A stretch of DNA of 64,000 bases from an uncultured Gammaproteobacteria bacterium (GCA_947258795.1 CAMYJU010000008.1:133122-197121), one strand, 5' to 3'. Shown: positions 1,690-43,067, numbered from the stretch's first letter. Notes: a model not told the origin generated them from the sequence alone. Program-made: numbers and translations.

Positions 1690-2901
1690 CTATAACCTCT
1701 GCGCCAGGGAGATCACCGGGTCCTGGCGCGCGGCGCGCCGGGCCGGCATTACCCCGAACACCAGCCCGGTTAACAACGCGATCAATGCACTGGATAACAA
1801 GGCCCAGTATGGGATCACAAACTCGACATCCGGGTAAGCGGCCTGTAACCAGGCACTGCCTGCCATACCAATGAAAATGCCAATAGCGGCCCCGACCAGG
1901 GACAACAACGCGGCCTCGGTCAGGAACAACAGCACCACCTGCTGCCGGTTTGCACCCAGCGCCTTGAGCAGGCCCACTTCCGCGGTACGCTGACTGACCG
2001 CGACCAGCATCACATTCATGATCAGGATACCCGCAACCAGTAGGCTGATGGATGCGATACCGGCAACCGTCAGCGTTAATGTGCCCAGGATGCGATCAAA
2101 GGTGTTCAGTACCGCATCCTGACTGATGACCGTAATATCTTCCTCGCCCTGATGACGGGTTTTGATCAGGGCGATGACCTGGTCTTCCAGGCTTTCCAGG
2201 TTTTCGCGGGTTTTCGCCTCGATCATGATGCGGATCAGCGAACTGGTATTAAACAATGCCTGGGCCGCCGCCACCGGTACAAATACGACATCCTGGACAT
2301 CGACACCGATCGATCGCCCTTCCGAGGCCATCACCCCGATTACCCGATAGCGTCGTTCACCGATACGCACCCATTCACCCAGCGCCTGCTGCCCGATAAA
2401 CAACTCGCGCTTCACGTTAGCGCCGATTACGCATACCGGACTGGCTCGTTCGGCATCACCCGGCGGCAAAAACTCTCCCTGTGACATCTTCCAGTGACGT
2501 ATGTCCAGCAATTCTGCGGTCGAACCAATCACCGCTGCATCACGATCACGTTGTTGCCAGGACACCCTGGCTGAACCCACCACCAGCGGACTGACACGCC
2601 GCACACTGGACAGGCGCTGCAATGCCATCGCATCCGCTATGGTCAGGTCACGTGTGGTTTCAGTGACGAACATACTGGCCGCAATACCCTGGGTCTCGCT
2701 CTTGCCGGGCAATACCACCAGCAGATTGGTGCCCAGTGACGCAAACCGGGACACGACATAGCGTCTTGCACCCTCACCAAGCGAGGTCAACACCAACATG
2801 GACCCAACACCGATACTCATCGCCACCAGTATCAGTATCGAGCGCGTGCGATATCGCGCCATCGCCGTGAACGCATACAGGATCAGGTCACGCCAGCGCA
2901 T
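1690..2901 (-). CDS. ABC transporter permease, FtsX/MacB family (second permease)
   Basis: Same architecture as the neighbouring permease (VAVSQRTAEVGLLKALGA). The likely start is the internal Met of MRWRDLILYAF at 2901, which overlaps the ATPase stop by a few nt. The ORF track extends to 2985. Confidence 0.85.
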   Translation of the reverse strand: MRWRDLILYAFTAMARYRTRSILILVAMSIGVGSMLVLTSLGEGARRYVVSRFASLGTNLLVVLPGKSETQGIAASMFVTETTRDLTIADAMALQRLSSVRRVSPLVVGSARVSWQQRDRDAAVIGSTAELLDIRHWKMSQGEFLPPGDAERASPVCVIGANVKRELFIGQQALGEWVRIGERRYRVIGVMASEGRSIGVDVQDVVFVPVAAAQALFNTSSLIRIMIEAKTRENLESLEDQVIALIKTRHQGEEDITVISQDAVLNTFDRILGTLTLTVAGIASISLLVAGILIMNVMLVAVSQRTAEVGLLKALGANRQQVVLLFLTEAALLSLVGAAIGIFIGMAGSAWLQAAYPDVEFVIPYWALLSSALIALLTGLVFGVMPARRAARQDPVISLAQRL

Positions 2902-3580
2902 CGGTATCGCCCGTGATATCTGCAACAATACGCCCGTCCACCAGGCGCAGTTTGCGATGTGCGCGATTGCCCAGGTCGGGGTCATGTGTCACCACGATCA
3001 GGGTAATGCCACGCTGATTCAGTGATTCCAGTATCTCGACCACATCATGACCGGAATGACGATCCAGATTTCCGGTGGGCTCGTCTGCCAGCAGCACATC
3101 CGGCTGCATGATCGTCGCGCGGGCGATCGCAACGCGTTGACGCTGCCCACCCGAGAGCTGGTCAGGGCGGTGATCCATGCGTTTTTCCAGGCCCACACTG
3201 CGCAACACCTGCTCGGCCCGTTGGTGACGCTCGGCGACCGGTATGCCTTCCAGCATCATCGGCAGCTCGACATTTTCACGTGCGGTCAGACGCGGCAACA
3301 ACTGGAAGAACTGGAATACAAAACCAATGCGCTTGCGCCTGACCTGCGCCTGCTGCATATCATCCATGGTAGTCACATCTTCGTTGGCGAGCCGGTAAAC
3401 ACCCGAACTGGGCCGGTCCAGCAGACCGATAATATTCAGCAAGGTGGATTTGCCCGAGCCGGAAGGACCCATCACCGAAATATATTCACCGGCACCGATG
3501 TCGAGATCCAGTTTGTCGAGCGCATGCACGGTCTGGTCACCCACCTGAAATTCCCGGCTGAGCTGTTCCAGCGATATCAT
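2888..3580 (-). CDS. ABC transporter ATP-binding protein (MacB/LolD-like)
   Basis: Walker A GPSGSGKST, signature LSGGQRQR and Walker B LLADEPT are present. The likely start MISLEQL (ATG at 3578-3580) lies just after the adaptor stop at 3585. Confidence 0.9.
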   Translation of the reverse strand: MISLEQLSREFQVGDQTVHALDKLDLDIGAGEYISVMGPSGSGKSTLLNIIGLLDRPSSGVYRLANEDVTTMDDMQQAQVRRKRIGFVFQFFQLLPRLTARENVELPMMLEGIPVAERHQRAEQVLRSVGLEKRMDHRPDQLSGGQRQRVAIARATIMQPDVLLADEPTGNLDRHSGHDVVEILESLNQRGITLIVVTHDPDLGNRAHRKLRLVDGRIVADITGDTDALA

Positions 3581-3584
3581 AGAA

Positions 3585-4739
3585 TCATTCAGACTCGATC
3601 TGCACGGCGGCACCGTCCTCCACACCGCTGCGATCGATCGAGGTCACGACCTGTTCGCCTGCCTGTAAACCGGACAGGATCTCGGTATAGCTCCAGTTGG
3701 ACAGGCCGGTCTTGACTGTACGCAATTCCAGCACGCCATCAGAGGATCGATAGACAAAAACCTGATCATTATCCTTGATCGCCTGGGTCGGTATGCGTAA
3801 CGCATCATTTATGGTATCCAGCAACACCTCGGCGTCGGCACTATAACCTGGCAGCAGGCGACTGGCATCCTGCGGGTCGGTGAAATCCACTTCGATATCA
3901 ACCGTGCGTGCCTGTTTTTCAATATCCAGTACATAATCGGCAATACGCCTGACCCGCCCCTTGAAGCTTTGTCCACGAAACGCGTCAAGGGTGATACGTG
4001 CGTCCATGCCCAGGCGCACCGTAGGCGCATCAACCTCGTCTATCGGTGCAATAATGTAGTAACAACTGGTATCGACCAGCACCACGGCCGGCAGGGTTGC
4101 CACACCTATCGGTGAAGGCGTGACCACCTCTCCGAGCTCACCATTGACCTCGGCGATGGTACCGTCAAAAGGTGCACGCAACAGGGTGCGTTCCAGATTG
4201 GCCTGTGTGACATCGACCTGTGCCTCGCTGACCTGCACCGCACTATGCGCGGCCGTGCAGGCAGCCTTACGTGCTTTCGCATCGCCCGTCGCCCGGTCAA
4301 GATCCTCTTCCGATGCCAGACCCTTTTTACGAAGCGTCTTGAGCCTTTTCGCTTCCCGGTCTGCCACTTCCGCCAGTACACAGCTCTCCTCGGCCCGTGA
4401 CCGGCTCGCCTTGAGCTGCATACGTGAAAGCTGCAATTGCGCCTGCAAATCCTGGTTCCAGAGCGCCAGCAGAACCTGGTCTTTTTTGACTACCTCGCTC
4501 TCCTTGACCGGCAAACGAGCTATCTGACCGGAAATCTGTGGTGCCAGGCTGGCACGCCGGCAAGCCGAAACTGTACCCGCACGGGTATTGCTAATGGTGT
4601 CTTCCACTGCGCCTTTATCCACTTTGCTGACGGTAACCATCACCGGTTCCGGACGCGTGGAGACCCATACCAGAACCGCAATTAGCAGTATGATAAGGAC
4701 CAGCCAGACGATTGTTTTCAATTTATTTGTCAATGCCAT
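3585..4739 (-). CDS. efflux periplasmic adaptor subunit (HlyD/MacA membrane-fusion family)
   Basis: 384 aa with an N-terminal TM anchor, a coiled-coil hairpin region, and barrel-sandwich and beta-barrel segments (LLRAPFDGTIAEVN). It is the first gene of the operon with the ATPase and two permeases. Confidence 0.85.
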   Translation of the reverse strand: MALTNKLKTIVWLVLIILLIAVLVWVSTRPEPVMVTVSKVDKGAVEDTISNTRAGTVSACRRASLAPQISGQIARLPVKESEVVKKDQVLLALWNQDLQAQLQLSRMQLKASRSRAEESCVLAEVADREAKRLKTLRKKGLASEEDLDRATGDAKARKAACTAAHSAVQVSEAQVDVTQANLERTLLRAPFDGTIAEVNGELGEVVTPSPIGVATLPAVVLVDTSCYYIIAPIDEVDAPTVRLGMDARITLDAFRGQSFKGRVRRIADYVLDIEKQARTVDIEVDFTDPQDASRLLPGYSADAEVLLDTINDALRIPTQAIKDNDQVFVYRSSDGVLELRTVKTGLSNWSYTEILSGLQAGEQVVTSIDRSGVEDGAAVQIESE

Positions 4740-5238
4740 CCAATGAACTCGGCGGAGAAGAATTCAGTAGCCCTGTGTCTGTTCGATCAAACCATACTGC
4801 TGCTATCCATCTGTGTATGCATACCTTATTAATGTTTTATACCTGTTAAATACCGATCATACAAATCAACGACCATTTTTCTGGCCGTTGATATCCTCCA
4901 CTCCAGGCGCAGTCATATCAGCCAAACCTGTTCGCACTCCGAATGATAAGCGTCAAAACAGGAATGGGCGTATGTCTGCATATCAACCCGGTTGCAGGGC
5001 ATGTCTGGCCAAGCCATCAACCAGGCGTGATCCGGTTCACAGTTCCTGTGCCGATGTCTGATTTACAACGATAAAAGCCACTGATATCCATTATTCAGCG
5101 TTGCAGATATCCTCCGCGATGCCGATATGCTTGATATATGTAGCCCTAACGCTATGATTTCACTGCATAGACGGGATTTAGGTAGGGAAAAACCATTATA
5201 CTTTAGTATAATCCTGTTATCCGCATTTCTGGTGACAT

Positions 5239-5976
5239 ATGTCCGCTAGTGTTCAAAGAATCCTGATTACCAATGCCAAGGGTGGTTGTGGCAAAAGCAC
5301 GGTCGCGACCAATCTGGCCAGCCTGTATGCCGCTCAGGGTATCGGTGCCGCGCTGTTTGACCATGACAGCCAACGTTCCAGTATGCGCTGGCTGTCCCGG
5401 CGGCCGGACGACAAACCGTCTATTCACGGGGTCGATGCCTCCGCTACATCTTGTCTGAACGTCACCCGTACCTGGCTATTACGGGTTCCGGAGAATGTAC
5501 AACGTATCGTCATCGATACGCCAGCCGGACTGAAAGGCGACGAACTGGTACGCCAGACCCGGGATATCGACTGCATTATCATACCGGTACTGCCGTCACC
5601 GATCGACATCCAGGCAACGGCTGACTTTATCCGCGACCTGTTGCTGTTGTGCAAGGTACGAGAACGCCATATCAGGCTGGCGATCATCGCCAATCGTACG
5701 CGTACTAACACCCTGTCATTCAAGGCACTGGAAAAGTTTCTGGCTACGTTGAAAATTCCGGTCATCGCGCGCTTACGTGACACCCAGCAATATACCCGTG
5801 CGGTCGAACAGGGCTGCGGGGTACATGAACTCAAATCCAGCAGCGCCCGACTGGACCATGCACACTGGAACCAGTTACTGGCCTGGTTGGAAGCGGACAC
5901 CGTAAACACTCCTGCCCCTGTAGAACCGAAAAACGCTGAGCACACCCCACCCCAGAGCCACCCCCTGGCGCAATAA
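5239..5976 (+). CDS. ParA/MinD-family P-loop ATPase (orphan)
   Basis: Deviant Walker A NAKGGCGKST at the N-terminus and a VIDTPAG Walker B-like motif. A TATAAT hexamer at 5207-5212 precedes the ATG. No parB-like partner is nearby. Confidence 0.8.
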   Translation: MSASVQRILITNAKGGCGKSTVATNLASLYAAQGIGAALFDHDSQRSSMRWLSRRPDDKPSIHGVDASATSCLNVTRTWLLRVPENVQRIVIDTPAGLKGDELVRQTRDIDCIIIPVLPSPIDIQATADFIRDLLLLCKVRERHIRLAIIANRTRTNTLSFKALEKFLATLKIPVIARLRDTQQYTRAVEQGCGVHELKSSSARLDHAHWNQLLAWLEADTVNTPAPVEPKNAEHTPPQSHPLAQ

Positions 5977-6128
5977 ATCTCATTGTAATTCAGTTGTTTA
6001 TTGTTACTTTTAAAAAGCGGTAACTGGTTCATGTTAGTAAAAACTCTAGTAAAAGTACGTATTGTTTCATGATTGCCCACTGCGTATATTAGCTGAACAA
6101 TTAAAACTTTAAGTTTAGGGAGTTTGCT

Positions 6129-8243
6129 ATGAGCAGGAAGTCTATACGTATATATGGATGTGTAACCTTATTATTTCTGTCCTTGGTCTCTACCGCAGCA
6201 ATTGCTGCAGGCGTTATCCAGCAAGGCCAGCAATATGCTGCAGACGAGGTATTGATCAAATACAGCGCAGGGATTTCAACCACACAAACCAATTCGGTTG
6301 CACAGGCGAACGGCGTTGCAGCCGTAATTCCATTCCAGACCGGCCCGGCCACATCCGCCATGAGCCGCTGGGCACGGGTCAAGCTCAAGCCCGGTATGTC
6401 GGTTGAACAGGCCATGGCGCAGTTTGGCAACGATGCGAATATCGAACTGGTCGAACCCAACTACGTGGTCAGCATCAAGCTAACACCGAATGACCCCAGT
6501 TACTCTTCGCTGTGGGGCCTGCATAACATCGGTCAAACCGGCGGTACCCAGGATGCCGATATCGATGCACCGGAGGCCTGGGACACCAACACCGGTTCCA
6601 GCAGTGTGATTGTTGCTGTGATTGACTCTGGCGTGGATTACAACCACCCGGACCTGGCCGCGAACATGTGGACCAATACCGGCGAGATCGCAGGCAACAG
6701 CATTGACGATGACGGCAACGGTTATGTCGATGATATCTACGGTTACGACTTTGTCAGTAATGACGGCGACCCGATGGACGACAACAGTCACGGCACCCAT
6801 GTCGCCGGAACCATCGCCGCAGTCGGTAACAATGGTGTCGGTGTGGTCGGCGTTGCCTGGAATGCCCAGATCATGGCGGTCAAGTTCCTGAACGCGGCCG
6901 GTAGTGGCTTCACCTCGGATGCGGTTTCATCGGTACTGTATGCAGCCAACAACGGCGCTGCGATCATGAACAACAGTTGGGGCGGCGGTGGTTATTCTCA
7001 GGCCCTGCAGGATGCGATCACCACGGCCAATTCGACCAATTCACTGTTTGTCGCCGCAGCAGGCAATAATGGCCTGGACAACGATATATTCCCGAACTAT
7101 CCGTCCAACTACAGTGGCCCGCATATTATCGCGGTCGCCGCAACCGATGACAGTGACGCGATCGCATTTTTCTCGAATTATGGCGCCACCACCGTCCATC
7201 TGGGTGCACCGGGTGTATCGATCTTCAGCACCGAGCCGGGTAACACCTATGGCAACAAGAGCGGCACCTCGATGGCTTCACCGCATGTTGCCGGTGCGGC
7301 AGCGGTCATCCTCGCGGCCAACCCAAGTATGACCAATGTACAGATCAAGGATCAGATCCTTAACAATGTCGACCCGACACCGGCCATGGCCGGTGTAACC
7401 ATAACCGGCGGCCGCCTGAACCTGAATGCGGCACTGGGTGGTGGTACACCTCCAAATAACCCGCCGGTCGCGGTACCGGGTGGTCCATACAATGGTGTTG
7501 TCGGTGTACCGGTACTGTTTGACGGCTCCGGTTCTTCCGACCCGGACGGCGATCCGCTGACCTATGAGTGGGGTATCCCGCCTGTGGTCTACACCACCGG
7601 TGTACAACCCTCATGGACCTTCAATGCCCCGGGCACTTACAGCATCTCATTGCGTGTCAATGACGGTACGGTTTATTCAAGCTGGGTTAACACCACCGTG
7701 ACCATTACTACTGGTACCAACCAGCCGCCGGTAGCGGATGCCGGTGGACCCTATAGCGGTACCGAAGGCCAGTTGGTTCAATTCGACGGCACCGGTTCTT
7801 CCGACCCGGATGGCGATCCACTGAGCTACAGCTGGACCCTGTCTGATGGCCGCACCATGACCGGCTCGCAGCCAAGCATCAGCTTTGCGACCGCGGGTAG
7901 CTACACAGTAACCCTGGTGGTATCGGACGGTCAGGCCAGTTCGACACCATCGACTGCGTCGATCACGATTACCGCCGGCACAAGCAACAACCCGCCGGTA
8001 GCTAATCCGGGCGGACCTTACTCAGGCACTACAGGTGTACCGGTGGTATTTGACGGTTCTGCCTCAACGGATCCGGACGGTGATCCATTGACCTATGCCT
8101 GGGGAATCCCGCCGGTTGTCTATGCGACCGGTGTGTCACCGACCTGGATATTCAACGCACCGGGTACCTACACGGTGTGGCTGAAGGTCAATGACGGTAC
8201 GGTTGATTCACCCTGGGTGAGCACCACGGTTACGATCCAGTAA
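6129..8243 (+). CDS. secreted subtilisin-like serine protease (S8 family) with three C-terminal PKD domains
   Basis: Signal peptide followed by an I9-like propeptide. The catalytic triad motifs are VIDSGVD (D166), HGTHVAG (H221) and GTSMASPHVAG (S381). Three ~85-aa PKD-like repeats (FDGSGSSDPDGDPL..W) lie at nt 7458-7709, 7722-7976 and 7989-8240. Confidence 0.9.
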   Translation: MSRKSIRIYGCVTLLFLSLVSTAAIAAGVIQQGQQYAADEVLIKYSAGISTTQTNSVAQANGVAAVIPFQTGPATSAMSRWARVKLKPGMSVEQAMAQFGNDANIELVEPNYVVSIKLTPNDPSYSSLWGLHNIGQTGGTQDADIDAPEAWDTNTGSSSVIVAVIDSGVDYNHPDLAANMWTNTGEIAGNSIDDDGNGYVDDIYGYDFVSNDGDPMDDNSHGTHVAGTIAAVGNNGVGVVGVAWNAQIMAVKFLNAAGSGFTSDAVSSVLYAANNGAAIMNNSWGGGGYSQALQDAITTANSTNSLFVAAAGNNGLDNDIFPNYPSNYSGPHIIAVAATDDSDAIAFFSNYGATTVHLGAPGVSIFSTEPGNTYGNKSGTSMASPHVAGAAAVILAANPSMTNVQIKDQILNNVDPTPAMAGVTITGGRLNLNAALGGGTPPNNPPVAVPGGPYNGVVGVPVLFDGSGSSDPDGDPLTYEWGIPPVVYTTGVQPSWTFNAPGTYSISLRVNDGTVYSSWVNTTVTITTGTNQPPVADAGGPYSGTEGQLVQFDGTGSSDPDGDPLSYSWTLSDGRTMTGSQPSISFATAGSYTVTLVVSDGQASSTPSTASITITAGTSNNPPVANPGGPYSGTTGVPVVFDGSASTDPDGDPLTYAWGIPPVVYATGVSPTWIFNAPGTYTVWLKVNDGTVDSPWVSTTVTIQ

Positions 8244-20165: not shown

Positions 20166-20576
20166 ATGGAACAGCCTGACACGGATACAACACGGTTTCG
20201 CGAAATTCATTTCAATCCGATGCACCCGGACCCGTCGCAGGCGCAAAGCGCCATACTGCTACTCAGCGATATCCATGGAATCACCCACCTGGATCTGGTC
20301 AACTCCCTGAAACTGCGCATTGGCTATAATCTGAAACACATCAACCTGCGCCATATCGAGCAGGCATTGATCGATGTCGGCTTTCATCTGGACAACAGCA
20401 TACTGGTCAAAATAAAACGCGCCCTGCACTACTACACGGAAGACGTACAGTGTGAAAATATGGGCTACCCGACCAAGGACAGCAACAGCACCAAGCAGGT
20501 GTTTATCAATCGCTATCAACGCCTGAAACACGGCTGTCGTGATGAGCGTCCCGATCACTGGCGGCGGTATTTGTAG
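20166..20576 (+). CDS. hypothetical protein
   Basis: 136-aa ORF with reasonable codon usage and no recognisable motif. Its Cys/His/Arg-rich C-terminus reads RLKHGCRDERPDHWRRYL. Confidence 0.5.
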   Translation: MEQPDTDTTRFREIHFNPMHPDPSQAQSAILLLSDIHGITHLDLVNSLKLRIGYNLKHINLRHIEQALIDVGFHLDNSILVKIKRALHYYTEDVQCENMGYPTKDSNSTKQVFINRYQRLKHGCRDERPDHWRRYL

Positions 20577-20787: not shown

Positions 20788-21531
20788 ATGGACGACGACC
20801 AGCTATTACGCTACAGCCGCCAGATCATGCTGCCCGGCTTCGGTATCGAGGCCCAGCAGAGACTGCTGGATGCGCGGGTCCTGGTCATCGGCGTCGGCGG
20901 CCTGGGTTCACCGGTGGCGATGTACCTGGCCGCGGCCGGCGTCGGTCAGCTGGTCCTGTGTGATGACGATGTCGTCGACCTGTCCAACCTGCAACGCCAG
21001 ATTGTGCACGACACCGGAAACCTCGGCCAGACCAAGGTCGAGTCGGCCCGGCAAAGCATAGAAAAACTCAACCCGGACGTCTGTGTCACCACCATCGATC
21101 ACCGTCTCGACGCCGGCGAACTGGAGGCTCAGGCCAGAGATGCAGACGTGCTGGTCGATGCCAGCGATAATTTTCAAACCCGGCACTTACTGAACCGGAT
21201 CAGCGTCGCGACCCGCACGCCACTGGTATCGGGTGCGGCGATACAACTGGATGGACAGGTCACCGTATTCCGACCCGATCTGGAGCACCAGCCCTGTTAT
21301 CGCTGCCTGTATCGCGAGGGTGACGAACCCGAACAAACCTGCAGCGATACTGGCATCCTCGCACCATTGGTCGGTATTATCGGCAGCATACAGGCGCTGG
21401 AAGTGATCAAGGTTTTAACCGTCCTGGGCAAGGATCTGGGCGGACGCCTGCTGATACTCGATGGCCGTACAATGGAATGGCGTAGCCTGAAACTGAAACA
21501 GGACCCGAACTGCCCGGTATGCGCAAGTTAA
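20788..21531 (+). CDS. moeB: MoeB/ThiF-family adenylyltransferase (molybdopterin-synthase adenylyltransferase-like E1)
   Basis: 247 aa with RYSRQIMLPGFG, the Rossmann motif VIGVGGLGSPVAMYLAAAGVG, and two CxxC pairs (CYRC, CPVC). It occupies the position after prmC, as moeB does in Pseudomonas. Confidence 0.88.
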   Translation: MDDDQLLRYSRQIMLPGFGIEAQQRLLDARVLVIGVGGLGSPVAMYLAAAGVGQLVLCDDDVVDLSNLQRQIVHDTGNLGQTKVESARQSIEKLNPDVCVTTIDHRLDAGELEAQARDADVLVDASDNFQTRHLLNRISVATRTPLVSGAAIQLDGQVTVFRPDLEHQPCYRCLYREGDEPEQTCSDTGILAPLVGIIGSIQALEVIKVLTVLGKDLGGRLLILDGRTMEWRSLKLKQDPNCPVCAS

Positions 21532-21577: not shown

Positions 21578-21677
21578 AGTAATCCCTTCTCCCTCAGGGA
21601 GAAGGTCAGGATGAGGGGATAAAGAATATTAATTTATTGTAATCCCTCACCCCGACCCTCTCTCTATGGGAGAGGGG
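21578..21677. repeat. REP-like palindromic repeat units (copy 2 plus a related second unit)
   Basis: agtaatcccttctccctcagggagaagg (21578-21605) is followed by tcaggatgagggg. A second gtaatccctcaccccgaccctctctctatgggagagggg unit follows, with a ccctctc/gagaggg stem. Confidence 0.65.
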
Positions 21678-21682
21678 CTAAT

Positions 21683-22123
21683 ATGAAAAAGATGATGACA
21701 GACACACACAAAGGCCGTATTGAACTACCGCGCACGATCGTCAATCAGATCCTGAGCCATGCCCAGCACTACCCCGAGCAGGAGATCTGCGGTCTGATCG
21801 CCGCCCGCGATGGCATACCGGAACAGATCTATCGTATTCACAACAGTGCAGCCCAGCCGCAAAAACTGTTCGAGATGGACCCTGAACAACAGATCGATGC
21901 GATGCGCAGTATGCGTGAAAGTGGCGAACAACTGTTTGCGATTTATCATTCACATCCACACAGTCCGGCACTGCCTTCTGTGACCGACCTGCACGAAGCC
22001 GCCTACCCGGACACCCTGTATCTGATCGTATCGCTGGATACCAAGGGTGTGTTGCAATTAAAGGGTTTTTATCTGGATGCGAACAAGGAAAGCATCCAGA
22101 ACGTGGACCTGTCTGTCGTGTAA
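21683..22123 (+). CDS. JAMM/MPN+ (Mov34) family metalloprotease
   Basis: 146 aa with the catalytic Glu in EICGLI and a complete HxHx7Sx2D motif (HSHPHSPALPSVTD). It lies immediately downstream of the MoeB-like E1. Confidence 0.85.
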   Translation: MKKMMTDTHKGRIELPRTIVNQILSHAQHYPEQEICGLIAARDGIPEQIYRIHNSAAQPQKLFEMDPEQQIDAMRSMRESGEQLFAIYHSHPHSPALPSVTDLHEAAYPDTLYLIVSLDTKGVLQLKGFYLDANKESIQNVDLSVV

Positions 22124-22255
22124 GCAATCGGTAAACTTACGCATTGCAGTACACACGTTCTTGTTATGTTTGACACATGCGCATGTTAATTCTACGACTT
22201 GATGGTTAGGAGTGTGTTGGCGACCCTGATCCCAGCTTAGGCCGGTAATCAATCG

Positions 22256-22276
22256 CCAGGGGGATGCACCCCCTGG
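22256..22276. terminator. GC-rich hairpin between the convergent JAMM and TIR genes (possible terminator)
   Basis: The 8-bp stem ccaggggg/ccccctgg has a 5-nt loop atgca. It lies 37 nt past the TIR gene stop. No clear U-tract on either strand. Confidence 0.3.
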
Positions 22277-22312
22277 ACCCCCGCAAAGGGCAAAAGAACA
22301 AAGTATAAAGGG

Positions 22313-24406
22313 TCACTGCTCGAGGTCCTGGGCGAGACGAAAACCAACATTGTAGCTTCGGGAGCCGGTGAAGTTCCTGAAGCGGAAGGAGGAACGCAGG
22401 TACCTCGGTTCGCTGTACCAGGAACCGCCGCGAAGCACGCGTAGGCCACAGTCGCCGCCTGCGCCCTTTTCCCAGGCCCTGCCGTCATCAGGCGCGTTTT
22501 CATACTTTTTATGCCAACAGTCCTGCGTCCATTCCCACACGTTACCCGCTGTGTCGAACAGCCCGAACGGATTGGCCGTAAATGAACCCACCGGGGACGT
22601 CTGTTTCCCGCCCCAACGCCCATCGCAACCCTTGCAGTTCGCCATACCCTCCTTCATCTCATCTCCCCACCAATACGCACTCGGCTCATTCGCGCGTACG
22701 GCATACTCCCACTCCGCTTCGCTGGGCAGCCGATAGCGCTTGCCGGTTTGTGCGCTCAACCATTCGGCATAGGCCACCGCGTCATCCCAGTTCACACACA
22801 CCACTGGTTGGCGTGCAGATTGTGGAAAACCCGGATTGCGCCAGCTCCTGGCTGTGTCTATCTTCCATACACTACCTGTCCAAATGTAGCAGCCTGTACC
22901 GCTCTCCGCTTGTATCTTGTAGTTGGTCTGCTTGACAAATTTCTCGAACTCGCCAACTGTCAGTTCGGTCACCATCAGCGCAAACGGCCTGGCGATCTTA
23001 ACGTGATGGACAGGTTTTTCGTCTTTGTTGCCTACTCCCTGGATATCGCCCATGCGAAACGTACCGGCCGGAATCACCACCATCTCGGGGCCCTCGCTAC
23101 CGTCCTTAAGCCGGTCGCGGAATGCTTTTCCTGCTGTTAGCTGGCGATCGGGCGCCGGGGGGCTTGCTGCTTCCAGGTCCGCCACAAAGTGGCGCAGCGC
23201 CGGGTGACCAGGGTCCACCGATCGGGCCTTGGCCAGATAGTCCTCCGCCTTGACGAAGCGGCGTTGGGCCTGGGCCTGCTCCGCCCACGCAATATACTGC
23301 TCGGTCACGCGCTTGAGGCCTGCGCGTGCGTCCGGGTTGCCGGGATCAAGTGCGAGCGCATCGCGGTAGTAGCCCACGGCGTTGTCATGTTCGGGGGTGG
23401 TTAAGCGACGTGCCTGCTCGGCCGCCGCGCCTTGTGTCAGCAAATCAGCCAACTTTTGCTCGCGCTCGCGGTGTACTTCTGCTGTCTTTGACGCAGTTGC
23501 TTGCTCAGCCTTGCGTATCGCTTCTTCCTCAGCTCGACGTTTTGCCTCCTGCTGCGCCTCGGATGGGCTTACTAAGGGCGGTGTAACTGGATCTGGAACA
23601 GGTTCATGCTGGCTCAGGCTTATTATCACAGTGACGACTATGATGGCGAGGGCAATACCTGCCGGTACAATGAGCTTATTCGTCATTGGCCGCGAACCAT
23701 TGGGTGTGTCGTGAGTGATGGGTGGCGGCTCTGTTGGCTTTGATGCAGCTACTTGCGCAGCCTTGCGCCTGGCGGCCTGTTCATCCTGTTTGCGCTGGGT
23801 TTCTTGTTTTGCCTTGCGCTGCGATGCTTGCTGTTGTTCAGCCTCTTTCACGGCCCGTTCGCGCTCTTGCGCCGCCGCTTCCTCGGCTTTGCGTTTCGCT
23901 TCTTCCTCGACGCGCTGCTGTTGCTCGGCCTGCGCCTTGCGCCGCGATTCTTGCTCGGCCTTGTGCGACGCCTCCCGTTCAACCTGCCGTTGCTGCTCTT
24001 CTGCTTTGGCTGGCGCGATACCGAGGATGTTGGAAAGATCGGCGAGCAGCCTGTCGAATTCCGTCGACGGTGCGTTACCATCCCAGTCGGCGAGTTTTGC
24101 GGACTGGATGCTGCGAAAACCCATCGGCGGTAATATGTGATCGATCAGCACCGGCGCAAGCACACCGCGCCGTTTGCCCTCGTCGGCCTCTTCGTGCACC
24201 CAGTCGGAGTCGACAGAATGCTGCGACCAGACCACGATCATGCAGCGGCAGTTGTCGATCTCTGTGCCGATCGCCTGTCGCCAGGTTGCGCCGACCGGAA
24301 TGGTCCGATCCCAAAACACCGACCAGCCGGTCTGTTCGAGCGCGCGCAGCAGGGGCCTGATCCTGTCCAGGTCCTCATTGGCATAGCTGACGAAGATGTC
24401 GCTCAT
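22313..24406 (-). CDS. membrane-spanning TIR domain protein: TIR / charged coiled coil / TM / TPR-like / FGE (SUMF1)-like C-terminal domain
   Basis: 697 aa, with the following regions.
- aa 1-130 is TIR-like (DIFVSYANED..., MIVVWSQHSVDSDWVHEE with an SxW[CV]xxE glutamate at E73).
- aa 131-225 is an E/Q/K/R/A-rich coiled coil.
- aa 245-264 is the TM helix LIVPAGIALAIIVVTVIISL.
- aa ~285-415 is a second coiled coil plus a TPR-like region.
- aa ~438-695 is an FGE-sulfatase fold (MVVIPAGTFRMGD, YRLPSEAEWEYA, GNVWEWTQD, RGGSW), but with no CxxxxC catalytic pair. Confidence 0.85.
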   Translation of the reverse strand: MSDIFVSYANEDLDRIRPLLRALEQTGWSVFWDRTIPVGATWRQAIGTEIDNCRCMIVVWSQHSVDSDWVHEEADEGKRRGVLAPVLIDHILPPMGFRSIQSAKLADWDGNAPSTEFDRLLADLSNILGIAPAKAEEQQRQVEREASHKAEQESRRKAQAEQQQRVEEEAKRKAEEAAAQERERAVKEAEQQQASQRKAKQETQRKQDEQAARRKAAQVAASKPTEPPPITHDTPNGSRPMTNKLIVPAGIALAIIVVTVIISLSQHEPVPDPVTPPLVSPSEAQQEAKRRAEEEAIRKAEQATASKTAEVHREREQKLADLLTQGAAAEQARRLTTPEHDNAVGYYRDALALDPGNPDARAGLKRVTEQYIAWAEQAQAQRRFVKAEDYLAKARSVDPGHPALRHFVADLEAASPPAPDRQLTAGKAFRDRLKDGSEGPEMVVIPAGTFRMGDIQGVGNKDEKPVHHVKIARPFALMVTELTVGEFEKFVKQTNYKIQAESGTGCYIWTGSVWKIDTARSWRNPGFPQSARQPVVCVNWDDAVAYAEWLSAQTGKRYRLPSEAEWEYAVRANEPSAYWWGDEMKEGMANCKGCDGRWGGKQTSPVGSFTANPFGLFDTAGNVWEWTQDCWHKKYENAPDDGRAWEKGAGGDCGLRVLRGGSWYSEPRYLRSSFRFRNFTGSRSYNVGFRLAQDLEQ

Positions 24407-24458
24407 TGTTTTTTCACGTCCCGCTTGTGGCGCTTGCCCGTGTCAGGCATGCGAATTT

Positions 24459-25226
24459 TCAGTGTTCTTTGCTTTCGCCTTTATGTGAATCCGATATGGA
24501 TTCTTCAAGTGCGCTTAAGGCTGACGACATTTCCGATGCATCACTGGTCCATTGTCGATGTTCCAGGGAAAGCTGGTCATTAACCGCATCGACATATTCA
24601 ATGATTATCGCGGGATTTTTTCCTTCATTCACCACAACGATAACATCATCATGCCTTTCAGCTATGTTGCTCAGGATATCTGCGGTACGACTGTATCGTT
24701 CTGCATTTCTTTCATCCTGATTAAGATCCTCTCTTCTGCTGGCGATGGCACTGAAATAACCCAAACGCTCAGTTTCAGCCTTGGCCCTGGCTTCCATCCA
24801 ACGTTCTAGTAATTTTTCAGTTTTAATCAAATGCAGCCTGTATACCGCAAAACCACCGCCAACGGTTGCAATAAAACCCAGCGCAAATAATAAATATGAT
24901 GTTACCAAGTCATTTGGATCGAGTTTTTTAGCTGCCGCCAAAGCCGCCAGCAGACTACCGGCTATTGCCGCACAACCAATTGCCCATGTTGCCTGATGAG
25001 CGAATCCCTTGAACTTAGCTTGAGTAGCGATTGCTACAGCATCGTGCTGCTCATACCGACCGGCTTTTTCCTGAAAAGAGGAATACTGCAGGATTGCACT
25101 TAATTCAGATGCGTATTTTTTCAGCTTGTCAGGGAAATCTGTAGGTGTGATCTTATAGTCATCTGGCGCGCCCCGCCCTAGCGCCAAGCTTGCCTTTTCT
25201 ATTAGGTCTTGCATAAACCGATGCAC
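24459..25226 (-). CDS. two-TM membrane protein, SLATT/DUF4231-like candidate effector
   Basis: 255 aa. It has an N-terminal helical region and two closely spaced TM helices (aa ~79-99 ATWAIGCAAIAGSLLAALAAA; aa ~110-130 SYLLFALGFIATVGGGFAVY). An amphipathic helix follows (LERWMEARAKAETERLGYF), then a ~90-aa soluble tail. It lies 52 nt upstream of, and co-oriented with, the TIR gene. It is much more AT-rich than its neighbours. Confidence 0.6.
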   Translation of the reverse strand: MHRFMQDLIEKASLALGRGAPDDYKITPTDFPDKLKKYASELSAILQYSSFQEKAGRYEQHDAVAIATQAKFKGFAHQATWAIGCAAIAGSLLAALAAAKKLDPNDLVTSYLLFALGFIATVGGGFAVYRLHLIKTEKLLERWMEARAKAETERLGYFSAIASRREDLNQDERNAERYSRTADILSNIAERHDDVIVVVNEGKNPAIIIEYVDAVNDQLSLEHRQWTSDASEMSSALSALEESISDSHKGESKEH

Positions 25227-25430: not shown

Positions 25431-26315
25431 TCAGTGCGTGGTACCCGAACCATCATGCGTAGACCCGTCAATAAATAATTGCGTCATATCAACCCGGTCA
25501 AATTCATAGTGCTGTTTACAGAAACCGCAATCGACAGCCACGACGCCCTGCTCTTCAATCAACTGCATCATGTCATCCTGCCCGAGGCTGCGTAATGATG
25601 TGGCCACCCGCGTTCGCGAGCACTTGCAGCGAAAGCTGACCGGCTCGGGTTCAAATAAACGCACACGTTCCTGATGATATAGCCGATACAGAACATCAGT
25701 CATCGGAAACTCAAGCAGTTCCTGTGCTGTGACAGTTTCTGCCAGGTGCACCAGATGCTCCCAGGAATACTCATCAGATTCCGTTTCGGTTTCGCTTGCC
25801 GGCATTTCCTGCAATAGCAGACCAGTACTGTAATGATGATCCGTAGCCAGCCAAAGACGGGTCTTCAGCTGTTCTGATTGTTCGAAGTAACTGTCCAGCG
25901 CCTTAGCCAGACCGCCCTGGCCCACTGAAATAATACTCTGGAAGCGTTCACCGGTGCTGTTCGATTCCACCGTAATCACCAGCCTTGCATCGCTACACAT
26001 TTCATGCAAACTGGCATCGGACACTTCGCCATTCCACTCGGCCATGCCGCGTAAACTGCGATCAGCACTGACTTGTGCAACCAGCAAGGTCAACGGCCCG
26101 CTGCCCTGTATCTGCAGGATCAGCGTGCCATCGTATTTGATCGTGGCACTTAACAAGGCCGTAGCCGCCAGCGCCTCACCCAGCACCCGCGCCACCGCTT
26201 CAGGGTAATCATGCCGCGCCAGCGCCGCTTGCCAACTCGCATCCAGGCGCACCCATTCACCCCTGACGCGGGTACCGTCGAACAGAAAGCGTGTTAGCTG
26301 GTCTGAATCTTTCAT
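25431..26315 (-). CDS. hslO: redox-regulated chaperone Hsp33
   Basis: 294 aa with the C-terminal zinc centre CKCSRTRV...CGFCKQHY and an Hsp33 N-domain (RGEWVRL). Confidence 0.92.
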   Translation of the reverse strand: MKDSDQLTRFLFDGTRVRGEWVRLDASWQAALARHDYPEAVARVLGEALAATALLSATIKYDGTLILQIQGSGPLTLLVAQVSADRSLRGMAEWNGEVSDASLHEMCSDARLVITVESNSTGERFQSIISVGQGGLAKALDSYFEQSEQLKTRLWLATDHHYSTGLLLQEMPASETETESDEYSWEHLVHLAETVTAQELLEFPMTDVLYRLYHQERVRLFEPEPVSFRCKCSRTRVATSLRSLGQDDMMQLIEEQGVVAVDCGFCKQHYEFDRVDMTQLFIDGSTHDGSGTTH

Positions 26316-26435: not shown

Positions 26436-27650
26436 TTATTCAAAGCCTTCTTCTTCAGAAGCGTCCGAACTGCTAGACGAACTGCCACCACTGAAAAAAC
26501 CTTCCTCTTTCCAGGCCGGACCATAGGCCAGACTGGCCGGCGCTGAACGGGCCTGCACTTTGTCACCCTTTCTGATCTTGCCGCGCACAGTACCGACGAC
26601 CTTCGCAATCGAATATTTCTTCTTCACGTTAGTAATCAGTACACTGCCAATTTCTTCCTCTTCACCACCGAGCGAGATACCGGTTTCCGGATCGATCAAC
26701 GCCTCGCCAGTGGCCATCAGGGATAGTGTGTCGCCGGTCTTGACTGTACCCTTGCCCAGGTTAATGTAGATCTTGCCTTTGGAGGCCTTGATCACCGTGC
26801 CGCGCACCGGTTCGGCACCAACCTGTTTGACCAGGTCGTAGACACCCTTGTTGACCGCGGCAATGACCGCCTGGCCGATCGGGGTCTTGGAATAGGAATT
26901 GACAAAGCCACCGGCCGCGCCTTTGCTGCCCCAGCCGATGCCACCGAGACCGATGCCGGATTCCTCCAGTACCGCCTCGACCTGTTTGGAATAAGCAATC
27001 TCACTGGTCTCGGCATTGATCAAGCGAAAGTTCATGCCGACCATGGACTTCTTTGAATTAACCGACAGGCCGCCGAGAAAACCACCGACCAGGCCACCGA
27101 CGCCGACATTATTGCCTTCAAAGTTCGGTTCGTAATGGGTCACCACCGCCTGGATCAGGTACTGCGCACCCAGGGTCTTGCCGGTCTTGGCGCCGGAGGG
27201 CTTGCTGATCCGGCCGCTGCTGACCAGGTCCTGCTCGGCGAAGGTCTTTTTCAGTGCGGTCCGTTCGACCACCCGGAAACGGCCGCTGCGATGCAGCACG
27301 TCGGTCAGGATCGCATCGATACCCTCGACTGGCACACCGGAGCCCCCGACCTTATAGCTGGTAGTGCCACCCCCGTACAGGTAGCCATAAGGACCATAAC
27401 CGCGACGGTTGTTATGGATTACCACGGTCTGCGCAGTAGAAGTGTTATCCACTTTCATCACGCCGACACGCGCCTTGTTGCCCTTGTATTTACCCCATTC
27501 GACCTTGATCAGGTTCTTGGCCGGTATTTCATCGACTCTTTCCGGCAGGGGCTTCTTGTTACCGTCGATGACCGCATAGGCGACATAATCGGCCTGCGCG
27601 ACTGGCAGGGTCAATAGCATGGACAGGGCCAGCAAGATAAACCGCTTCAT
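26436..27650 (-). CDS. CsgG/HfaB-family periplasmic/outer-membrane protein with C-terminal beta-rich domain
   Basis: 404 aa with a signal peptide (LLTLPVAQA). The CsgG-like core reads ILTDVLHRSGRFRVVERTALKKTFAEQDL..GAQYLIQAVVTHYEPN. A Gly-rich segment and a Ser/Glu-rich tail follow. Confidence 0.7.
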   Translation of the reverse strand: MKRFILLALSMLLTLPVAQADYVAYAVIDGNKKPLPERVDEIPAKNLIKVEWGKYKGNKARVGVMKVDNTSTAQTVVIHNNRRGYGPYGYLYGGGTTSYKVGGSGVPVEGIDAILTDVLHRSGRFRVVERTALKKTFAEQDLVSSGRISKPSGAKTGKTLGAQYLIQAVVTHYEPNFEGNNVGVGGLVGGFLGGLSVNSKKSMVGMNFRLINAETSEIAYSKQVEAVLEESGIGLGGIGWGSKGAAGGFVNSYSKTPIGQAVIAAVNKGVYDLVKQVGAEPVRGTVIKASKGKIYINLGKGTVKTGDTLSLMATGEALIDPETGISLGGEEEEIGSVLITNVKKKYSIAKVVGTVRGKIRKGDKVQARSAPASLAYGPAWKEEGFFSGGSSSSSSDASEEEGFE

Positions 27651-41590: not shown

Positions 41591-42034
41591 CTAGTGACGG
41601 TGTCTCCTGCCTAACAGACTGATTAAAATTAGTCCTGTACCAAACAGTGCAAGTGTCCCTGTTTCCGGAATATCGTAATAGCGGTCGCGGCTATTATCCA
41701 CTGAAGACAAACCTGCCACTGCACCGGACTTGAAACCACTGGTGTTGTAATAGCGATTACCCTCAGTCATTGTCAATTGGGAAACCACCGCACCGGATTT
41801 AGAGCCTGTGGCAAAAAAGCGGTTAGCGTTTGCATCCGTGACAAACTGGGCAACATTGCCGGATTTGAAACCGGTTGCATAGTAGCGGTTCTGCTCCACT
41901 GTCACTGTCGGCTGACTGATCACCGCACCGGATTTGACGCTACCATCGAATGTGCTCGTTACCGCTTGTGATATGGCTGGGGCCAGCAACAGCGCTGATA
42001 CCAGGGTCAGGTTTGAAACGTATCTTGCTTTCAT
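41591..42034 (-). CDS. PEP-CTERM sorting-signal protein with internal ~18-aa repeats
   Basis: 147 aa with the signal peptide LLLAPAISQA. It has three to four repeats (N/D)R(Y/F)(Y/F).TG.KSGAV. The C-terminal IPETGTLALFGTGLILISLLGRRHRH has the PEP-like motif, TM helix and basic tail of a PEP-CTERM signal. Confidence 0.75.
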   Translation of the reverse strand: MKARYVSNLTLVSALLLAPAISQAVTSTFDGSVKSGAVISQPTVTVEQNRYYATGFKSGNVAQFVTDANANRFFATGSKSGAVVSQLTMTEGNRYYNTSGFKSGAVAGLSSVDNSRDRYYDIPETGTLALFGTGLILISLLGRRHRH

Positions 42035-42386
42035 ATCACCACCTCCTGAAAGAACTTGATTACGTTTGTTAAGCTTTTGTAATTAATAAAGCATAAAACG
42101 TACCAGCCATTTATTTATTTACATTAATCAGGTGGTTACATGTTTCAGACCTGGAGCCTTTCAGTAAAATTAGCAGTTCATTGTTAACTCACTCGACTAA
42201 AAATCCCGGTAATATTACCTAATAAAAAGTAAAATATTATAATAAACAATAAGTTATAGTATTTTTCTATAAGTATCCTGATGTAAATTTTTTCAACACC
42301 TGCTGATCAAGCATATGCAAGCTGTAAAAAAACTATAAAATACTCAGCTTGTTATTGATCCGGAAACTGCTGGACTGAATCTGAAT

Positions 42387-43067
42387 ATGACCGCTGCCAT
42401 CAACATTCGCTATCTGGGATTACAGGAATATGAACCGCTGTGGCGGCGTATGCAGTCGTTTACCCTGCAGCGGAACGCTAACACCGTGGATGAAATCTGG
42501 GTAACTGAACATCCGCCTGTATTGACCCTGGGTCTTAACGGCAAGCCGGAGCACATACTCAATGCCGGCAAGATCCCGGTCATCCAGGTCGACCGGGGCG
42601 GACAGGTCACCTACCATGGCCCGGGGCAACTGGTTATTTACACCCTGCTCGATCTGAACCGGCTCGGTATCGGGGTACGCGAACTGATCAGCAACATCGA
42701 GCAGGCCATAATCGCAACCCTGGCCCTGCATAAGCTCAAGGCCAGTAGCCGTGCCGATGCGCCGGGTGTGTATATCGATGGCGCCAAGATCGCCGCCCTC
42801 GGCCTACGCATTAAAAAGGGTTGTAGTTATCACGGCCTGAGCCTCAACCTGGATATGGACCTGAGCCCGTTTCTGGGTATTAACCCTTGTGGTTACGAGG
42901 GCATGGATGTTTGTCAGCTTTCTGATTTTAAAGAAAAAATAAATTTTTCCCTGATTACAGATCAACTGCTCACACAACTACTCGCCAATCTGGGATACAC
43001 TATGCCGGATTCTGAAACAGGTACACGGTATGACAAGCTCCAAACGTACAATCGTCACACCAGGTGA
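42387..43067 (+). CDS. lipB: lipoyl(octanoyl) transferase
   Basis: 226 aa with [16 protein letters not shown] and a [16 protein letters not shown] catalytic Cys/Lys region. Confidence 0.93.

Follow-up and report, generated by a model that had tools for sequence, protein, structure and literature searches.

A candidate Thoeris-like TIR-SLATT cassette with a receptor-type TIR protein and an internally deleted effector gene in an uncultured gammaproteobacterium

Operons that combine a TIR protein with a SLATT-family membrane protein have been validated as the anti-phage system type VII Thoeris (ThsB and ThsH; Yirmiya et al., bioRxiv, 3 December 2025, 10.64898/2025.12.03.692087). In this system, ThsB responds to infection by making canonical cyclic ADP-ribose (cADPR), and oligomerisation in the membrane is predicted for the SLATT effector ThsH. 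The same survey did not count standalone TIRs among the Thoeris signalling systems but treated them as a group of their own, and it makes no mention of FGE, sulfatase or periplasmic sensors (10.64898/2025.12.03.692087). SLATT genes accompany TIR-type effectors, and the FGS lectin-fold domain of conflict systems, which is found exclusively at the C-terminus, contacts invader molecules directly (Kaur et al., 2020, PMC7159879; the canonical SLATT/DUF4231 effectors with two transmembrane (TM) helices go back to Burroughs et al., 2015, as cited there). CLec/FGE domains were proposed as antigen sensors of the cytoplasm or the periplasm (Doré et al., 2024, PMC10907252), and hallmarks of Toll-like receptors such as membrane association seem to be absent from bacterial TIR systems according to a survey of Escherichia coli TIRs (2024, PMC11350192). 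Here, we describe a two-gene cassette in 64,000 nucleotides (nt) of DNA from an uncultured Gammaproteobacteria bacterium (CAMYJU010000008.1:133122-197121, hereafter the window), which consists of a SLATT-type gene (gene A) and a gene for a membrane-anchored TIR protein with an FGE-fold domain (gene B).

Both open reading frames (ORFs) are located on the minus strand with a spacing of 52 nt, between hslO on one side and a JAB (JAMM)/MoeB gene pair on the other, exactly as claimed in an earlier note on this DNA. With modest confidence, we interpret the locus as a Thoeris-like TIR-to-SLATT signalling cassette that is nearest in logic to type VII Thoeris and has suffered damage to its effector arm by a deletion in this genome; by analogy, the cassette is probably anti-phage. 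The earlier note did not recognise the pairing as a named system, which has to be corrected: the combination of TIR and SLATT is already known and named as type VII Thoeris, whereas SLATT coupled to a TIR of receptor-type TIR-TM-sensor topology constitutes a so far uncharacterised variant. The locus shares with type VII Thoeris the co-oriented, closely spaced pair of a TIR gene and a gene of a SLATT-family membrane protein, a catalytic Glu in the TIR domain (E73 of gene B), and an all-helical membrane effector with conserved positively charged and aromatic cytoplasmic helices. In addition, one of the related tandem-SLATT loci (L001) also encodes a type VII-like ThsB TIR. In contrast to type VII Thoeris, gene B is predicted to be anchored in the membrane and to carry its FGE-fold sensor on the extracytoplasmic side, the SLATT partner is of a divergent tandem type with four TM helices and is internally deleted in the window, and the window locus lies outside a defence island.

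The assignment of gene A to SLATT comes from its family. Matches of gene A itself to SLATT profiles were not significant (E 0.18-0.62). A homology search retrieved 82 relatives, almost all of them ~336 amino acids (aa) long and many with a precomputed PF18181 annotation, which align with gene A in two blocks around a gap of ~85-92 residues that occurs in the window copy only. Since the homologues start where Met5 lies, translation of gene A probably initiates at the ATG at 25214; the 255-aa ORF noted earlier exists (from a GTG at 25226), but the protein probably has 251 aa. Full-length relatives carry SLATT_1 at residues ~182-312 (26.7-33.7 bits versus a gathering score of 26.3), and their first half gives a weak SLATT_fungal or DUF4231 score. 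A profile of 71 family members and a canonical SLATT_3+SLATT_1 protein could be aligned colinearly along 263 columns (HHalign probability 92%, E 7e-7). Taken together, the relatives and the profile-profile comparison, not the protein's own score, support the membership of gene A in the SLATT superfamily, and gene A also shows the SLATT-type layout, in which conserved cytoplasmic helices come after a 2TM hairpin.

In their native form, the proteins of this family are ~336 aa long, contain four TM helices and combine SLATT_3 and SLATT_1 in a divergent tandem. An exhaustive profile search yielded 1,057 matching representative clusters at 50% identity (384 with E ≤ 1e-30), and among the best 150 of these nearly all members are 330-360 aa long and matched in one unbroken stretch. 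The AlphaFold2 model of a full-length relative (P0002) consists entirely of helices, four of them TM helices and others long and cytoplasmic, and reached a predicted local distance difference test score (pLDDT) of 93.6 and a predicted template modelling score (pTM) of 0.86. A Foldseek comparison of the full-length SLATT model with the PDB revealed no meaningful match (best E 0.009, template modelling score ~0.2), all matches being helical bundles of a generic kind, among them ClyA-type toxins and TM domains of ABC transporters. The family resembles canonical SLATT_3+SLATT_1 proteins in its two-module architecture of ~335 aa, its predicted role as a nucleotide-responsive pore former and its association with TIRs. 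It differs from them by its strong divergence, with a barely detectable first module and a SLATT_1 score near the gathering threshold, and the window copy additionally lacks TM3 and TM4. A canonical SLATT_3+SLATT_1 protein was also observed in locus L019 of an actinobacterial metagenome-assembled genome (4781-5788, minus strand; E 5e-44 and 8e-36), convergent with a divergent tandem-SLATT gene; the two tandem-SLATT paralogues are adjacent there and no TIR is nearby.

Compared with the closest full-length relative (locus L034), gene A shows a single gap of exactly 276 nt (92 codons) in frame, and its retained parts are 86-87% identical at the DNA level. The end points of the deletion carry a 10-bp imperfect direct repeat in L034 (TCAaTGCCaT / TCAgTGCCgT), pointing to slippage or microhomology as the likely cause. 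The missing segment is kept in 35/35 other loci surveyed, comprising 33 species-level tandem-SLATT genome loci together with L034 and its counterpart L035, and the two-stretch split expected of such a deletion was found in none of the best 150 of the 1,057 clusters. Of the 64 positions with a conservation of at least 90%, the deletion removes 13, among them the invariant residues F179, Q187, Y191 and H198. In the AlphaFold2 model of the window protein, pLDDT values exceed 90 up to about residue 150 and range from 48 to 75 thereafter (pTM 0.57). The SLATT effector of the window is therefore most likely inactive or attenuated, while the TIR-sensor gene is intact. The earlier note had described gene A as a protein with two TM helices and a W..R..AE-type helix; these segments (residues 79-100 and 107-129, and WMEARAKAETERLGYF) are indeed present, but as a native layout the 2TM form does not stand, since the 92-codon deletion is unique to this genome, and it is probably a secondary, deletion-derived and crippled state. 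An intact SLATT effector, which is a feature of type VII Thoeris, is absent from the window copy and present in L034. Signs of decay were also seen elsewhere in the tandem-SLATT family: L004 contains a 67-aa TIR-like remnant (5334-5534, E 1e-4) after the SLATT gene, and L025, L029, L032 and L033 gave partial tandem-SLATT matches only.

The link between SLATT and TIR recurs beyond this genome. Using a purpose-built TIR hidden Markov model (HMM), a TIR ORF was detected within 400 nt of the tandem-SLATT gene in 11/35 loci and within 3 kb in 16/35. The taxa with such an adjacency comprise KSB1, Desulfobacterales, Zixibacteria, Zetaproteobacteria, Phycisphaerae, Acidobacteriota and Gammaproteobacteria, and the partners vary, including a TIR-TGT-like protein, a 1,066-aa TIR protein, TIR-DUF5919 and TIRs located upstream. 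One protein (P0390) fuses tandem SLATT and TIR_2 in a single chain. The recurrent adjacency and the fusion protein support a functional link between SLATT and TIR. Co-occurrence of the pair, which the earlier note had proposed to survey, is thus found for the families; the exact pair occurs in an intact form only in the closest relative L034/L035, where a 340-aa SLATT gene is followed by a 687-aa TIR-FGE gene with the same JAB-ThiF flank. The ThsB_TIR protein of the L001 operon (Pfam E 5e-21) matches validated type VII ThsB TIRs with E 8e-10. This operon from KSB1 (2664-6880) encodes tandem SLATT, a TIR with a TGT-like C-terminus, an Ogg-HhH-like glycosylase, QueC and ThsB_TIR, and so mixes TIR signalling with genes resembling the 7-deazaguanine pathway.

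Gene B follows the order TIR, coil, TM helix, second coil with TPR-like helices and FGE-fold domain that had been proposed earlier; Pfam matches and hydrophobicity agree with this order, the TPR part being weak (TPR_19 at residues 340-410 with E 4e-4, under the Pfam cut-off, and designed TPR proteins in the PDB with E 3e-5). The closest solved structures of the TIR domain are the NADase AbTIR (E 2e-8) and TcpB. The catalytic Glu of AbTIR (W-T-N-Y-E) aligns with E73 of gene B (W-V-H-E-E), and this Glu is invariant across eight SLATT-associated TIR domains (the window, six other loci and the near-identical L034). PADLOC reported the candidate PDC-S66 for the TIR (E 9e-12), which is uncharacterised in the literature; the match covers only profile positions 150-224 of 282, i.e. 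the TIR core, and is thus partial. The flanks of the TM helix contain two K/R residues on the N-side and none on the C-side, and no signal peptide was found in gene B. According to the positive-inside rule and the missing signal peptide, the TIR domain is predicted to be cytoplasmic and the FGE-fold domain to be outside, in line with the topology suggested before.

The C-terminal domain of gene B has its best solved relative in the periplasmic protein PvdO (5hha, E 1.5e-48 over the whole domain). The catalytic Cys pair of FGE (…LCHxSYC…) is absent (GGSWYSEPRYL in gene B versus GGSYLCHDSYC in Streptomyces coelicolor FGE), and with 198.5 bits gene B misses the cut-off of 500 of the NCBIfam PvdO equivalog NF051459. 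Both findings indicate that the domain is a lectin-fold module and not an FGE enzyme, and an identity as true FGE or PvdO enzyme was rejected on these grounds. PvdO, which acts in pyoverdine maturation, likewise lacks the Cys pair and is periplasmic; unlike in the case of PvdO, no pyoverdine genes are nearby and the domain is fused to a TM helix and a TIR. The position C-terminal to the signalling domains corresponds to the 'always C-terminal' syntax of FGS/C-type-lectin-fold conflict sensors (PMC7159879; PMC10907252), which can be joined to TIR, kinase, caspase or cyclase modules alike and include versions predicted in the cytoplasm and in the periplasm. In contrast to those systems, a diversity-generating retroelement (DGR) and STAND, vWA or MoxR components are absent here, and the domain is PvdO-like instead of TvpA-like. 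A DGR-diversified sensor was also rejected, as no second copy of the gene B 3' end (template repeat) exists anywhere in the 64-kb window.

By predicted topology, gene B shows the order of parts of animal Toll-like receptors that had been pointed out in the earlier note, with an extracytoplasmic binding domain, a single TM helix and a cytoplasmic TIR. It differs from these receptors in having a lectin-fold/TPR sensor instead of leucine-rich repeats, an N-terminal TIR and hence a reversed orientation, and a TIR predicted to be an enzyme and not an adaptor; nothing indicates that the two architectures as a whole share an ancestor. Comparison of the window with L034 revealed a strongly conserved TIR (94% identity, dN 0.04, dN/dS 0.11) and a more variable outer part: dN was 0.22-0.23 for the external linker and the FGE-fold domain (for the latter ~six times the TIR value), dN/dS was 0.38 for the external linker and 0.28-0.38 over the span of linker and FGE-fold, and FGE identity was 62%. 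For the SLATT gene and ThiF, dN/dS values of 0.135 and 0.14 were obtained. The contrast in dN indicates a conserved enzyme with a quicker-evolving sensor without overall positive selection.

Proteins combining TIR_2 and FGE-sulfatase are common, with dozens of clusters. A TM helix between TIR and FGE was present in 23/42 TIR-FGE homologues, and among homologues without an FGE domain a TM helix follows the TIR in 31/32. Across the TIR clade as a whole, homologues carry Big_2, cytochrome c, Sel1/TPR, PEGA, NHL or peptidoglycan (PG)-binding domains. Three cysteines of the FGE fold are kept more often in anchored than in soluble forms: Cys630 in 20/23 versus 9/19, Cys653 in 18/23 versus 6/19 and Cys594 in 12/23 versus 2/19 (Fisher p 0.004-0.008, not corrected for phylogeny). 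This bias fits disulfides in an oxidising compartment. The soluble TIR-FGE homologues have charged linkers similar to the coil of gene B. Regarding gene contexts, L037 is a multi-TIR cluster in which a distant TIR-TM-PG_binding-FGE protein lies beside a canonical SLATT_1/DUF4231 gene, L039 is a multi-TIR cluster with a patatin gene, and other clade members adjoin patatin, TPR-S or further TIR genes. Such mixed SLATT, patatin and TIR contexts are modular in the way one would expect if TIR sensors produce a signal and can be combined with different effectors. A further multi-TIR cluster (L043, 717-7712) contains a TPR-S protein (PF20308) and a patatin beside a TIR-TM homologue of the window TIR and resembles putative Thoeris configurations with a patatin effector. 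Two candidates for additional tandem-SLATT relatives were discarded, namely the 336-aa gene heading the TIR cluster of L037 and the gene downstream of the TIR-Big_2 protein of L045.

For the intact ancestral form, as in L034, the following mechanism can be proposed. The PvdO-like lectin-fold domain together with the TPR/coil region would bind an extracytoplasmic ligand, possibly an envelope-borne cue of phage attack or damage. As known from TIR enzyme activation in general, ligand binding may cluster the single-pass gene B protein via its long coils and so assemble the cytoplasmic TIRs. The assembled TIRs would then cleave or cyclise NAD+ via E73, the catalytic residue by alignment, to a presumed cADPR-type signal. 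In analogy to ThsH, this signal would bind the conserved Arg/His/Trp/Tyr-rich cytoplasmic helices of the four-TM tandem SLATT, which may oligomerise, breach the membrane and abort infection. In the window genome, the in-frame deletion of 276 nt, presumably microhomology-mediated, has stripped the SLATT gene of TM3, most of TM4 and an invariant motif.

Several observations weigh against this interpretation. The TIR of gene B belongs to a TIR_2/AbTIR-like clade without a significant phmmer match to the validated ThsB TIRs, the profile of SLATT-associated TIRs reaches only 13.9 bits against three type VII TIR sequences (Table S1), and the gene A subfamily is a putative relative of ThsH. About half of the tandem-SLATT loci have no TIR nearby. 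A TM helix is missing in 19/42 TIR-FGE homologues, which have a charged linker only and should be cytoplasmic, so extracytoplasmic sensing is not family-wide and a periplasmic FGE-fold domain, as put forward in the earlier note, cannot be taken as the rule. The flanks of the cassette are housekeeping genes (hslO, CsgG-like, gatB/gatA, JAB, MoeB) and not a defence island. As for the deletion, it is in frame and preserves the topology, so the 2-TM product may have residual or altered function, and it could be an assembly artefact. Finally, we know of no experiment on this TIR clade, this tandem-SLATT subfamily or any TM-anchored ThsB.

The first alternative is that gene B is a self-contained TIR NADase, sensor and effector in a single gene, which depletes NAD+ directly, with an independent or dispensable SLATT whose decay is tolerated. 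TIR-FGE genes are solitary in two of four other loci (L036 and L038; a third, L039, has the patatin), the nearest solved TIRs are AbTIR-type NADases, and the single-gene candidate PDC-S66 matches the TIR. Moreover, SLATT is damaged while gene B is intact with a strongly constrained TIR, and the Thoeris survey treats standalone TIRs as a category of their own. We nevertheless consider this explanation unlikely: the adjacency of SLATT and TIR in the tandem-SLATT family is far above chance and accompanied by a fusion protein, an unrelated TIR-TM-FGE protein also adjoins a canonical SLATT gene (L037), clade members occur with patatin in multi-TIR clusters as signal-producing ThsB proteins do, and the PDC-S66 match is limited to the short stretch of the profile given above.

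According to a second alternative, the 2-TM deletion product is functional, keeps an N-in/C-in topology and recreates a single-SLATT-like layout in an active, remodelled cassette. This would agree with the otherwise intact ORF with its in-frame deletion, 85% identical retained parts and low dN/dS, with the existence of single-module SLATT proteins of ~156 aa that pair with TIR-FGE proteins, and with the preservation of the invariant W..R..AE helix and the C-terminal QLSLEHRQW helix. The idea appears rather improbable given that the four invariant residues and the entire pre-TM3 helix are lost, that none of the best 150 of the 1,057 clusters shows the two-stretch split, that model confidence collapses past the junction (pTM 0.86 for the full-length relative, 0.57 here) and that the break points lie at non-equivalent positions of the two repeats; the low dN/dS mostly reflects the history before the deletion. 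Very improbable, finally, is a role outside defence, with gene B as receptor of an envelope or metabolite cue (e.g. siderophore-related or from the cell wall), physiological TIR/NAD+ signalling and SLATT as a regulated channel: the housekeeping flanks without defence genes nearby, the closeness of the sensor to periplasmic PvdO, the peptidoglycan-binding domain of the L037 homologue and the absence of both protein families from the plasmid and phage collections searched would suit it, but the PvdO equivalog score of 198 bits is far under 500, the cassette is variably present in close relatives and bracketed by a fragment of the target gene in L034 as is typical of accessory cassettes, clade relatives cluster with multiple TIR, patatin and TPR-S genes, and all characterised bacterial TIR+SLATT operons are anti-phage.

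To our knowledge, all characterised ThsB sensors of Thoeris are cytoplasmic and sense phage components inside the cell. If the Thoeris-like interpretation is correct, a membrane-anchored TIR enzyme with an outward lectin-fold sensor, coupled to a SLATT effector, would widen TIR signalling immunity to include sensing outside the cytoplasm. Proteins of the gene B type would also offer a tractable bacterial model of receptor-type TIR activation, for which the family data (a TM helix after the TIR in nearly all forms without FGE, and FGE-fold forms that are either soluble or anchored) supply concrete constructs. More tentatively, and as a possibility we regard with some doubt, the window TIR protein may belong to a broad bacterial class of receptor-type TIRs with an N-terminal TIR, a coil, a TM helix and swappable external domains, which would sense phage or envelope damage and relay a cADPR-type signal to SLATT or patatin effectors. 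Such a class would represent Thoeris-like immunity with the topology of Toll-like receptors, acting before or at genome entry. The locus furthermore documents the natural decay of a toxic effector by microhomology deletion with retention of the sensor, which bears on gain, taming and loss of such cassettes.

The coordinates of the features are compiled in Table 1.

Table 1. Features of the TIR-SLATT cassette, in window coordinates.
Feature	Position	Strand	Description
Gene A	24459..25214	-	251 aa from ATG 25214; ORF to GTG 25226 (24459..25226) = 255 aa; internally deleted tandem-SLATT (ThsH-like) membrane effector gene
TM1-loop-TM2 hairpin, gene A residues 79-129, first SLATT_3-like module	24840..24992	-	hydrophobic segments 79-100 and 107-129; pLDDT >90
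Invariant cytoplasmic helix after TM2, gene A	24753..24800	-	WMEARAKAETERLGYF; W143, M144, R147, A148, E151 and R154 invariant in 72 family members
Deletion junction …LGYF|SAI…, gene A	24750..24757	-	SLATT_1 module without its pre-TM3 helix, TM3 and the larger part of TM4
Gene B	22313..24406	-	697 aa; TIR-coil-TM-TPR-FGE-fold, receptor-like ThsB-type TIR protein; L034 orthologue 687 aa
TIR_2 domain, gene B residues 1-125	24032..24406	-	predicted cytoplasmic; Pfam TIR_2, residues 4-121, E 1.4e-21
E73 codon	24188..24190	-	predicted catalytic Glu; alignment with AbTIR
Charged E/K/R/Q/A-rich coil, gene B residues 131-225	23732..24016	-	predicted cytoplasmic; weak TolA-like match, E 1.4e-6
Single TM helix, gene B residues 245-265	23612..23674	-	LIVPAGIALAIIVVTVIISLS; Kyte-Doolittle maximum 2.81
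Pro-rich segment, coil and weak TPR-like helices, gene B residues 269-438	23093..23602	-	predicted extracytoplasmic; TPR_19 and TPR_14 sub-threshold
PvdO-like FGE/C-type-lectin-fold domain, gene B residues 439-697	22316..23092	-	presumed sensor; Pfam FGE-sulfatase, residues 439-692, E 6.4e-66
Hairpin element, 73 nt	22233..22305	-	CCAGGGGG-TGCAT-CCCCCTGG; directly 3' of the gene B stop codon

Upstream of the cassette, the same-strand neighbour is hslO (25431..26315, Pfam HSP33 3e-77); on the other side, a Prok-JAB gene (21683..22123) and a MoeB-type ThiF gene (20788..21531) converge on gene B. The latter scores 332.7 bits with the NCBIfam MoeB subfamily (cut-off 266). A type II cyclic-oligonucleotide-based anti-phage signalling system (CBASS) via these neighbours was rejected, since the ThiF protein has 247 aa, lacks an E2 domain and lies above the MoeB subfamily cut-off, and no cyclase occurs in the neighbourhood. 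PADLOC identified no other defence system around the cassette; the defence context was assessed for this locus and a few relatives. With a GC content of 0.52-0.61, the cassette is unremarkable compared to the window mean of ~0.55. The nearest named HslO relatives of the host come from Thiogranum, Chromatiales and Nitrosococcus, with only ~50-55% identity.

The region next to hslO differs between related genomes. In the close relative L042, gatB-csgG-hslO is kept and followed by a rhodanese gene without the cassette. L034 contains the same rhodanese gene, a duplicate of the JAB 3' end, the cassette and the full JAB gene, and the window lacks both the rhodanese gene and the JAB fragment at the junction. 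These three arrangements of the hslO/rhodanese junction in three related genomes suggest that the cassette occupies a variable chromosomal junction and not a recognisable defence island. A clean empty site was sought and not found, as L042 lacks the cassette after hslO but diverges past the rhodanese gene. The JAB duplicate of L034 (814-976, with the same range in L035) is 163 nt long, lies upstream of the SLATT gene and encodes residues 90-146 with 79% identity to the window JAB; bracketing of the cassette by JAB 3' sequences in L034 resembles an insertion footprint. Neither tandem SLATT nor the TIR-FGE fusion was found in the plasmid and phage collections.

Simple scans for promoters and terminators yielded nothing beyond shuffled expectation. 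The 73-nt element behind gene B has no T-run and was therefore not called by the terminator scan; an 82% identical counterpart lies between the SLATT and TIR genes of L034 (2243-2313), and the element is possibly a terminator or a small relocating repeat element. The moeB-JAB intergenic region of the window (21581-21676) is 77% identical over 103 nt to the intergenic region between gatB and the csgG-like gene in L040 (6581-6683) and may be another dispersed intergenic repeat. Between prmC and moeB, the window contains a 136-aa ORF (20166-20576, plus strand) without Pfam, NCBIfam or PADLOC match, the 3' region of which is kept beside ThiF in L034 (85% over 86 nt). A 404-aa gene for a CsgG-family lipoprotein-like protein (26436-27650, minus strand) lies between gatB and hslO; it additionally contains a FlgT_C-like region and ends in a tail rich in Ser and Glu, and its synteny is kept in L040 and L042. 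At 42001-43000, the GC content of the window dips to 0.45 relative to the mean of ~0.55, and this segment may be foreign DNA.

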